A program made the position numbers and the translations under genes. A stretch of 21,352 nucleotides of DNA. Origin: Candidatus Cloacimonadota bacterium (GTDB taxonomy: Bacteria > Cloacimonadota > Cloacimonadia > Cloacimonadales > JAQVBK01). Location of the stretch: positions 1 through 21,352 of the forward strand of contig JAQVBK010000025.1 of the NCBI GenBank assembly GCA_028690365.1. Reading direction: 5' to 3'. Each line of letters starts with the position of its first letter. Within the stretch, counting starts at the first letter, position 1. The notes under the pieces were generated by a model, which was given only the letters and a program-made list of their open reading frames with translations, did no database searches and was not told the DNA's origin. This document shows, piece after piece, positions 18,780 to 19,420 of this stretch.

Positions 18780-18868
18780 TTTATCAGCTAATCTCCTGAT
18801 TTCCTTCAAATAAAATCTCGTCTATTTTATACATCGTCCCCAAACGGGGGTTTAGTACGAGAAAGATG

Positions 18869-18924
18869 GTCCCCAAACAGGGAGAGTTAAATAATAGAGA
18901 TTTCCCCCCTAAAGGTTTAGGGAC
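18869..18924. repeat. 56-nt direct repeat, copy A (GTCCCCAAACAGGGAGAGTTAAATAATAGAGATTTCCCCCCTAAAGGTTTAGGGAC)
   Basis: Read directly from the sequence. About 92% identical to the copy at 19063-19119. It contains a perfect CCCTAAA-gg-TTTAGGG hairpin, and its ends are near-complementary (GTCCCCAAAC / GTTTAGGGAC). A truncated variant, GTCCCCAAACGGGGGTTTAGTAC, sits at 18836-18858. Confidence 0.7.
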
Positions 18925-19062
18925 AATGCATGTAGGTCAATCCTCTCGGATTGACCTTATTCTTTTACTCTCGATTCTCGTTACCAATCCCCTGATTGGT
19001 AACGTAATGGATTCTCTTCCGAATCCCCGATTCGCTTAACCAATCTTGCCTATCTCGTCCCC

Positions 19063-19119
19063 GTCCCCAAACAGGAAGAGTTAAATAACAGAAATTTAAC
19101 CCCCTAAAGGTTTAGGGAC
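19063..19119. repeat. 57-nt direct repeat, copy B (GTCCCCAAACAGGAAGAGTTAAATAACAGAAATTTAACCCCCTAAAGGTTTAGGGAC)
   Basis: Aligns base-for-base with copy A. Differences are 3 substitutions plus TTTCCCCCC versus TTTAACCCCC. Same internal CCCTAAA-gg-TTTAGGG hairpin. Confidence 0.7.
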
Positions 19120-19420
19120 GAGAATAAGAAATCCTGAGATCGAAGTTCCTAAGTCGACGATAGTCGGCAAGGTCTTCGGTCTGATTTGCCGGAAGTCCCT
19201 GACCCGAGAATTTCGGGTCGAGAAACTCCCGTCAGAACAGAGCTATAGAGACTAGAATATTCTGCCTCTCTCTTCAGCTCTCAATCCCAACAAATATTGA
19301 TTGATATTCTCAAAAATATCTTGTTTCAATAATCTGTTTTCCAAAGTTGGTTTCAGACTAATTCATGATTGTTCAAATAACTTAAAAATAGTGTGTCAAA
19401 AATGATAAAAAGGATTATTT

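Follow-up and report, generated by a model that had tools for sequence, protein, structure and literature searches.

G+C-rich palindromes in AT-rich spacers are a habit of repetitive extragenic palindromes (REPs) and bacterial interspersed mosaic elements (BIMEs), of Rickettsia palindromic elements and of the GC clusters of yeast mitochondria. Sponge RNAs of the Csr/Rsm type (CsrB, RsmY, RsmZ) have been established mainly in Gammaproteobacteria, and to our knowledge almost no regulatory RNAs are known in Cloacimonadota. Surveys from the Breaker laboratory have examined long G+C-rich intergenic regions (GC-IGRs) of AT-rich genomes for new RNAs (PMC6429828, PMC8632094, PMC11109978); one of them, covering 4714 such regions, yielded 250 mobile or repeat candidates, 55 high-ranking RNA candidates, 10 small RNA (sRNA) candidates and >1000 ‘unnamed’ or ‘low-ranking’ candidates (PMC11109978). 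The same logic applies to the locus described here, a hairpin-packed non-coding stretch of ~450 bases on the 21,352-nt contig JAQVBK010000025.1 of a Candidatus Cloacimonadota bacterium (assembly GCA_028690365.1; the whole contig is hereafter the window). It lies in a 677-nt spacer between the gene for a 1089-amino-acid (aa) protein and an ATP-binding cassette (ABC) exporter operon, and its G+C-rich part (18836–19255) is referred to as the island. In common with REPs and BIMEs, with REP doublets forming hairpins (REPINs) and with miniature inverted-repeat transposable elements (MITEs) such as Correia elements, the island consists of short imperfect palindromes with inverted ends, clustered outside coding regions past a gene; as in REP/BIME and MITE sequences, it is richer in G+C than the surrounding spacer and its copies within the genome are nearly identical. 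Read on the minus strand, as a candidate RNA, it would resemble the Csr/Rsm sRNAs in carrying many short hairpins with GGA-containing purine loops. We tentatively interpret the island as a lineage-specific, minus-strand structured RNA composed of repeated hairpin modules, a reading that we place first while holding it to be possible rather than probable.

The island itself is a real and statistically robust feature. Its G+C content of 46.2% (47.5% in the highest 200-nt window) compares with 36.3% for the contig, 36.2% for the ABC gene and 23.6–39.4% for the eight other intergenic regions, the richest of which contains a tRNA-Pro gene; the remainder of the same spacer has 35% (18744–18835) and 27% (19256–19420). 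An earlier note on this DNA had put the island at about 50% and called such a rise a classic signature of structured RNA. The island is indeed richer than its surroundings, but slightly less so than claimed, and the upstream gene itself reaches 41.3% (genes overall, 33–41%). At a stem cutoff of ≥6, 15 perfect hairpins were counted, as opposed to 0.68 ± 0.94 in 500 shuffled sequences (maximum 5)—a ~20-fold excess—and the island is also the 420-nt stretch of the entire contig that is densest in perfect hairpins (17 vs. a mean of 1.8). Folding of positions 18780–19290 relative to shuffles gave z-scores of –6.05 (plus strand) and –7.55 (minus strand). All perfect hairpins that had been listed before are present at their positions, except that the stem of CCCCaaacGGGG has merely 4 bp. 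The hairpins GGTCAATCC/GGATTGACC and TTACCAATC/GATTGGTAA extend to 10 bp (18934–18957) and 11 bp (18979–19004), respectively, and two further ones can be added to the list, GGATTCtcttccGAATCC (19009–19026) and GTTAAATaacagaaATTTAAC (19080–19100). The distances given for the island were close to those measured: it starts ~56 nt past the terminator of the upstream gene (hairpin at 18750–18773 with a T run behind it), and 166 nt separate its end from the ATG of the ABC ATPase gene at 19421. An independent Logan contig (SRR22315505) reproduces positions 19095–21284 of the window exactly, so that the right part of the island is not an assembly artefact, while the left part rests on one assembly. 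The break of this contig at 19095 was considered as a sign of a multi-copy repeat and rejected: its other end, at 21284, falls within the permease gene, so that breaks in that assembly are not tied to repeats.

Two families of hairpins recur in the spacer (Table 1). The first comprises three copies of a 56-nt unit, all inside 290 nt. Units B (18869–18924) and C (19063–19119) align over 57 columns with 91.2% identity (E = 1e-16) and are bounded by GTCCCCAAAC...GTTTAGGGAC. On the minus strand, both are closed by a 10-bp stem, GUCCCUAAAC/GUUUGGGGAC, that includes one G·U pair and is followed by a 4-nt bulge, a 6–7-bp inner stem and an A/U-rich loop. All five differences between the two units are compatible with this hairpin: one converts G–C to G·U on the minus strand, three together lengthen an inner stem, which grows from 4 to 7 bp, and the last falls into the loop. 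While the repeat reported in the earlier note thus stands for these two copies, the third, unit A, is internally deleted rather than truncated, as it retains both ends (GTCCCCAAAC and GTTTAGTACGAGAA) and has lost the 36-nt interior. The unit has terminal inverted repeats, a trait of MITEs: GTCCCCAAAC and GTTTAGGGAC pair at 9/10 positions, and the inverted ends extend to 12 nt (18834–18845 with 19110–19121, 92%). The GTTTAGGG arm of B and of C has two possible pairing partners, CCCTAAA close by and GTCCCCAAAC farther away.

The second family, which the earlier note had not recognized, consists of the hairpins at 18790, 18934 (H2), 18979 (H3) and 19020 (H5), whose common feature is an apex of the form AATC-loop-GATT. 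The spacer holds three instances of the strict pattern AATC-[Y3-6]-GATT, all oriented alike, and the rest of the 21 kb has none (0.01 expected). The lower stems of H2, H3 and H5 are unlike at every position and yet perfectly paired. In the loops of five hairpins (the three with the strict pattern, H2 and H4), 21/21 nt are pyrimidines on the plus strand, that is, purines on the minus strand, and the asymmetry extends to the unpaired nucleotides of 18925–19062, of which 63/84 are pyrimidines on the plus strand. H4 and H5 overlap and are mutually exclusive.

Table 1. Features of the spacer between the 1089-aa protein gene and the ABC exporter operon, in order of position in the window
Feature	Position	Strand	Description
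Intrinsic terminator of the 1089-aa protein gene	18750–18783	+	10-bp stem, 4-nt loop, T run; left boundary of the region
Mini-hairpin AATC-TCCT-GATT	18790–18801	–	First copy of the apex motif; minus strand reads AAUC-AGGA-GAUU
Unit A, short form	18833–18863	–	Keeps both ends, TCGTCCCCAAAC ... GTTTAGTACGAGAA, without the 36-nt interior
Unit B	18869–18924	–	56-nt two-tier hairpin; inner stem AGGGGG/CUCCCU; local palindrome CCCTAAAGGTTTAGGG
H2	18934–18957	–	Perfect 10-bp hairpin AGGTCAATCC-TCTC-GGATTGACCT; minus-strand loop GAGA
H3	18979–19004	–	Perfect 11-bp hairpin; apex AATC-CCCT-GATT
H4 (GGATTC-TCTTCC-GAATCC) and H5 (CGAATC-CCC-GATTCG)	19009–19034	–	Both loops all-pyrimidine on plus strand
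Unit C	19053–19123 (core 19063–19119)	–	Stem extended by CTCGTC.../...GACGAG; 6-nt duplication (CGTCCC)
H6, compound hairpin, singleton	19137–19182	+	–24.8 (+) vs. –14.4 (–) kcal/mol; two G·U on plus strand
H7, singleton	19189–19232	–	18-bp; three G·U on minus strand = A·C mismatches on plus strand
H8, singleton	19239–19283	–	Imperfect hairpin GAGCU.../...AGCUC; delimits the G+C-rich part on the right
Candidate promoter of the ABC operon, TTGATA-17 nt-TTTCAA	19301–19329	+	Downstream of the island
Candidate –35 box, exact TTGACA	19394–19399	–	Points into the island; inferred start near 19364

The strand signals mostly favor the minus strand, as far as can be judged from sequence. Predicted RNA folding energies on the minus and plus strand are –22.7 and –15.6 kcal/mol for unit B, –32.3 and –22.1 for unit C, –29.2 and –19.9 for H7, and –16.6 and –14.5 for H8. 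These four are steadier on the minus strand because A·C mismatches on the plus strand become G·U pairs on the minus strand, and DNA folding parameters ranked the strands alike for the three of them that were so folded (B, C and H7). Only H6 shows a clear preference for the plus strand. The triplet GGA occurs 13 times on the minus strand (6.2 ± 2.2 expected); it lies wholly in the loop in the 18790 hairpin and in H4, and at the loop–stem junction in H2, H3 and H5. Terminator-like sites of a short hairpin with a U-rich tail are found on the minus strand inside units C and B, the one in unit C consisting of the local palindrome and the U-rich tail following it.

A possible origin of a minus-strand transcript is marked by an orphan –35 box, which, like the strand asymmetry of the loops, the earlier note had not mentioned. 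Ten intergenic TTGAC[AT] hexamers were counted on the contig, and all of the evaluable ones (8/8) aim at the adjacent gene, with the proximal hexamer at each gene positioned 36–92 nt upstream. The other two are on the minus strand: the hexamer at 182 aims off the contig end, and that at 19399 aims into the island, where there is no open reading frame (ORF). The promoters at 2127, 6095, 6420, 11319, 11367, 11435, 15168 and 15382 appear to have a well-conserved –35 element, TTGAC(A/T), and no recognizable –10 element of the TATAAT type. A Bacteroidetes-type promoter motif, TAnnTTTG, was set aside, its intergenic occurrences not being consistently oriented toward genes. The genes of the contig also have strong GGAGG ribosome-binding sites, unlike the Bacteroidetes pattern and despite the type IX cargo described below.

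Neither a known RNA family nor a protein accounts for the island. A search of the whole contig with Rfam 15 at gathering thresholds returned tRNA-Pro alone. Relaxing the threshold to E ≤ 10 for positions 18700–19450, on both strands, added three matches of 14.5–18.6 bits (thresholds, 45–56), none of them inside the island: two cover the terminator and its upstream flank (18713–18782), and one is to a snoRNA at 19314–19387. No match was obtained to RNase P, tmRNA, SRP, 6S, CsrB/Rsm, PyrR, riboswitches, group I/II introns or IS605-associated RNAs, in agreement with the earlier note, which had found no known family to which the island could be assigned. Its description as strongly structured and non-coding holds as well. 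The longest ORF across the island (18866–19039) has 57 codons, encodes a hydrophobic stretch and, unlike the other genes of the contig, has no properly spaced GGAGG. The lone match of this 57-aa sequence among 1.84 billion representative proteins, to a 51-aa repeat protein, turned out to add up eight weak alignments and was dismissed as an artefact, and the ORF has neither the ribosome-binding site nor the relatives of a small hydrophobic protein of a type I toxin–antitoxin system.

Searches for relatives of the DNA were similarly negative. An exact 20-mer of the 56-nt unit had 0 matches in a 185,579-species genome collection and in the JGI metagenome contigs, distant-mode blastn of the island against phages and plasmids returned nothing meaningful, and palindrome patterns in viral contigs gave unrelated hairpins only. 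A gapped search of metagenomes for GTCCCYAAAC...GTTTRGGGAC retrieved >120 loci, none related to the unit or the island by nhmmer or blastn and none from a relative. Among the 34 short-loop matches to GTCCCYAAAC-N3-6-GTTTRGGGAC, 10–11 have the common left flank CTC, and most of these a G in the right flank (CTCGTCCCCAAAC-N3-4-GTTTGGGGACG). The CTC-flanked loci (L040, L052, L071, L076, L086, L087, L100, L107, L113 and L128) reside on contigs of 27–65% G+C, mostly in intergenic regions and with no common neighboring gene family, and the same extended ends (TCGTCCCC...GACGAG) are seen in units A and C of the window (18833–18863 and 19056–19122). These metagenome palindromes may be several unrelated repeat families caught by the selection of the query, or a widespread palindrome of undefined role. 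A literature search for the end motif led to primers and unrelated sequences only.

The flanking genes offered no syntenic counterpart. The closest homologue of the ABC ATPase, 63% identical in aa (locus L002), also has an ABC_export permease gene next to it, and the 233 nt upstream are plain AT-rich DNA with no similarity to the island. The regions downstream of both homologues of the 1089-aa protein are unrelated to it as well. The closest SppA homologue has 58% aa identity, with synteny not conserved, and a scan of the genome contig collection with SppA revealed no relative. Going by these best identities for SppA and the ABC ATPase, the lineage is isolated, with no close relative. As no collection searched contained a homologue, there is no covariation by which the ‘classic signature of structured RNA’ could be upgraded to evidence; the island is an orphan and at most a candidate functional RNA. 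GC-IGR candidates termed ‘unnamed’, ‘low-ranking’ or ‘mobile/repeat’ met with the same outcome, having <5 representatives and no consensus model. Those pipelines, in contrast, classify via homologues, of which the island has none, so that covariation cannot justify even the lowest named category; in their vocabulary, the island would be ‘unnamed’.

We nonetheless rank a minus-strand structured RNA first because of the conserved apex on diverged stems, the uniform asymmetry of loops and linkers, and the orphan –35 box. From the sequence features and statistics, and from the lack of coding potential and of a known family or homologue, we infer transcription, strand, ends and function as follows. 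The RNA would be assembled from two module families, the 56-nt two-tier hairpin with its short form, and an apex AATC-[3 to 6 pyrimidines]-GATT set on unrelated perfect lower stems. Transcription of the minus strand would start from a divergent promoter (–35 TTGACA at 19399–19394) beside that of the ABC operon and might end at the hairpin and U-tract in unit C (about 19085), at unit B, or at the bidirectional terminator, which would give a structured RNA of ~0.3–0.6 kb with purine-rich, GGA-containing loops and linkers. Its function could be the display of repeated loop motifs to a binding partner; alternatively, antisense or insulating transcription between the ABC promoter and the convergent 1089-aa protein gene might be what matters. 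The modules probably arose by local duplication, which makes a mobile-element origin of units A to C compatible with an RNA: units A to C could be mobile hairpins inside a transcript, the two explanations not being mutually exclusive.

Several points count against such an RNA. With no homologue in the collections searched, neither interspecies covariation nor evidence of selection outside one locus is available, and no Rfam model matches. A TTGAC[AT] hexamer on the minus strand is expected by chance within 166 nt with a probability of ~0.1, and no convincing –10 box accompanies it. The strand signal is not unanimous, given that H6 favors the plus strand and that H2 and the T-rich tail behind it resemble a terminator on the plus strand, while the minus-strand terminators are weak (6–7-bp stem). 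Part of the GGA excess is non-independent, 4/13 of the minus-strand sites falling into the repeated GTCCCC ends. Two copies of a 56-nt sequence with 91% identity in one RNA would be unusual for a functional RNA and are typical of repeat elements. Finally, in surveys of G+C-rich intergenic regions, mobile or repeat candidates outnumber high-ranking RNA candidates by 250 to 55 (PMC11109978).

The explanation that ranks second, and that we consider somewhat less likely than an RNA, is a cluster of selfish or structural palindromic repeats (REP/BIME-, REPIN- or MITE-like) that inserted or were locally amplified at a ‘safe’ site past the terminator and of which many genomic copies would be expected; any action of theirs would be that of generic stem-loops. 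It accommodates three unit copies with 10–12-nt inverted ends (TCGTCCCCAAAC / GTTTAGGGACGA), one of them internally deleted, and the 91% identity of units B and C would then indicate a recent origin. Several stems are perfect Watson–Crick palindromes without wobble pairs, the strand preference is mixed in that H6 is unlike the rest, and the island is strictly lineage-specific and missing at equivalent positions in relatives; its G+C-rich palindromes in an AT-rich spacer conform to the habit of the repeat families named at the outset. Base rates point the same way: of the classes assigned to G+C-rich intergenic regions, that of mobile or repeat candidates is the largest (PMC11109978). In addition, the Bacteroidales contig carrying a homologue of the 1089-aa protein gene has a dispersed G+C-rich palindrome family of its own, with one copy right past the terminator of that gene. 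On this contig from a metagenome-assembled genome (L004), CCCCTCT-N3-AGAGGGG occurs four times in 8 kb (2901–2920, 2950–2969, 3079–3098 and about 6990–7010), with a resolvase gene near, and thereby has the look of a REP-like family that occupies the equivalent position in another genome.

Against a repeat cluster speaks that no module, the 56-nt unit included, recurs in the other 20.7 kb of the contig with its eight other intergenic regions, whereas REPs and REPINs are defined by dispersed copies, tens to hundreds per genome. The contig has no transposase, RAYT or integrase gene, and none of its proteins has the Y1 transposase domain by which REPIN–RAYT systems are characterized. Read from the sequence, the flanks of units B and C have no consistent direct repeat recognizable as a target-site duplication. 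The conserved GTAG of REPs precedes H2 only (atGTAGgtcaatcc), being absent from units A to C and from H3 to H8. Unlike in REPs and MITEs, the second hairpin family conserves nothing beyond apex and loop type, on stems that are fully diverged yet perfectly paired, which is not the pattern of copy-and-decay. Loops and linkers, moreover, are uniformly strand-asymmetric.

The reverse polarity, in which one or more sRNAs derive from the plus strand, either by read-through or from the 3′ untranslated region of the 1089-aa protein gene, or as an independent sRNA from ~18840 to the H2 terminator (about 18967), is improbable in our estimate. The Shine–Dalgarno sequences of target mRNAs would be bound by its C/U-rich loops (UCCU, CUCU, CCCU, CCC), as in RsaE/RoxS or RNAIII, and the strong GGAGG-type ribosome-binding sites of the contig genes could indeed pair with loops that are C-rich on this strand. 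H2 with its tail, TATTCTTTTA, scores as a plus-strand terminator, H6 is steadier on the plus strand, and the plus-strand fold of the whole region is itself well beyond shuffles (z = –6.05). The segment concerned, 18826–18970, folds only modestly above shuffles on the plus strand (z = –2.3), in units B and C, H7 and H8 the plus strand has the A·C mismatches, a strong terminator precedes the island with no plus-strand TTGAC[AT] box between the two, and nothing similar is found downstream of homologues of the 1089-aa protein gene.

Returning to the minus-strand RNA, a more specific version of it appears a shade more doubtful still than plus-strand sRNAs. By analogy, the transcript might represent a new class of multi-hairpin sponge RNA in Cloacimonadota, unrelated in sequence to CsrB/RsmZ. 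An RNA-binding protein, for example CsrA, would be sequestered by its repeated AAUC-[purine/GGA loop]-GAUU hairpins, and its promoter would be divergent from the ABC operon. The loops in question read AGGA, GGAAGA, AGGG/GA, GGG/GA and GAGA/GGA on the minus strand, next to a single-stranded CAGGAU. CsrA co-occurs with flagellar gene sets, and such sets are present in some Cloacimonadota (bioRxiv 10.64898/2026.06.11.731707). In contrast to Csr/Rsm RNAs, the island matches none of the Csr/Rsm families of Rfam by sequence or covariance model, several of its GGA triplets straddle the loop–stem junction, and its stems are much longer (10–11 bp).

The earlier note had also offered the island as a long 5′ leader of the ABC operon. 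Such a structured leader or regulatory region, riboswitch- or attenuator-like, would be in keeping with the position of the island, which precedes the operon and is oriented like it, and the GTTTAGGG arm with its alternative partners (CCCTAAA or GTCCCCAAAC) has the layout of a switch. We regard it as very improbable: the upstream region of the closest ABC homologue is ordinary, the 166 nt between island and ATG (27% G+C) hold the only plausible ABC promoter that we could infer, and there is no match to a cis-regulatory family of Rfam. Since it is absent at that homologue and lies upstream of the likely promoter, the island is not a conserved leader of this operon.

Just as improbable is an array of sites acting at the DNA level, be they attC sites formed by units B and C, as in clusters of attC sites lacking integron-integrases (CALINs), or palindromic sites for protein binding or recombination. 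The units have in common with attC sites a length of 56–57 nt, an imperfect two-stem hairpin with AAC/GTT in the closing stem, a shared orientation and strand-dependent folding, and H2 and H3, as perfect palindromes of 24–26 bp, have the size of operators or recombinase sites. The attC version was rejected on consensus and geometry—CCCAAAC and GTTTAGG each fit the R-box consensus, RYYYAAC/GTTRRRY, at 5/7 positions only (PMC5027507), and instead of a central spacer and extrahelical bases on the arm opposite AAC the sole unpaired spacer is a one-sided 4-nt bulge, which on the better-folding minus strand sits on the AAC arm, the geometry of a top strand—and it fares no better with its surroundings, both flanking genes being on the plus strand and hence in the wrong orientation for cassettes, the 194-nt ‘cassette’ having no ORF, the contig encoding no integrase domain, and no attC-like unit preceding the 1089-aa protein gene, while for operators the AATC...GATT center varies from 3 to 6 nt and is ill-suited to a dimeric binder. 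Our literature search returned no paper linking Cloacimonadota with attC sites.

If genuine, the minus-strand RNA would be a lineage-specific structured non-coding RNA from a deep, uncultured branch of Cloacimonadota, and its repeated apical motif would point to an RNA-binding partner. A palindromic repeat cluster would be an ordinary genomic feature and chiefly cautionary, in that G+C-rich, hairpin-dense islands in AT-rich genomes are not by themselves evidence of a functional RNA. Under either explanation, an orphan locus such as this one taken alone teaches nothing general.

The remainder of the contig includes recF, dnaN, an HU gene, and genes for a C25 peptidase, tRNA-Pro, a Band-7 protein, an FKBP isomerase and SppA. 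Downstream of the island, the plus-strand ABC ATPase gene (19421–20140) is followed by a gene for a PF16962 permease that runs off the contig end. The tRNA-Pro gene (11471–11544), also matched by Rfam, was the sole tRNA-type call of ARAGORN on the contig. recF (3392–4468), dnaN (4495–5613) and the HU gene (5768–6052) are grouped on the minus strand and adjoin a 416-nt spacer of 23.6% G+C (6053–6468). The presence of dnaN and recF raised the idea of a replication origin, which was unsupported: four DnaA boxes compare with 7.7 expected, enriched nowhere, and the contig has no dnaA. The C25 (gingipain-type) peptidase of 1611 aa (6469–11304) carries, besides its propeptide and Ig-like domains, a tail for type IX secretion (CHU_C/FlgD_ig), from which it follows that this Cloacimonadota lineage uses type IX secretion.

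A chance origin probably applies to an inverted repeat of 23 nt, 83% complementary, between the 3′ part of the coding region for the 1089-aa protein (18303–18325) and the H6/H7 junction (19180–19202), for which blastn gave an E value of about 1.4. The gene for this protein (15474–18743, plus strand), upstream of the island, encodes no Pfam domain. It is internally duplicated, with DNA repeats 1056–1134 nt apart, and has 41% G+C in a 36% genome; among 5.8 billion proteins, its product has two homologues only (62–63% identity over 53% of the length). These features suggest a recently acquired, fast-evolving secreted protein. Downstream of the gene for one of the homologues, in GCA_015657875.1 (L003, 12983–13397), inspection by eye suggested a short open frame resembling a type IX C-terminal sorting domain.

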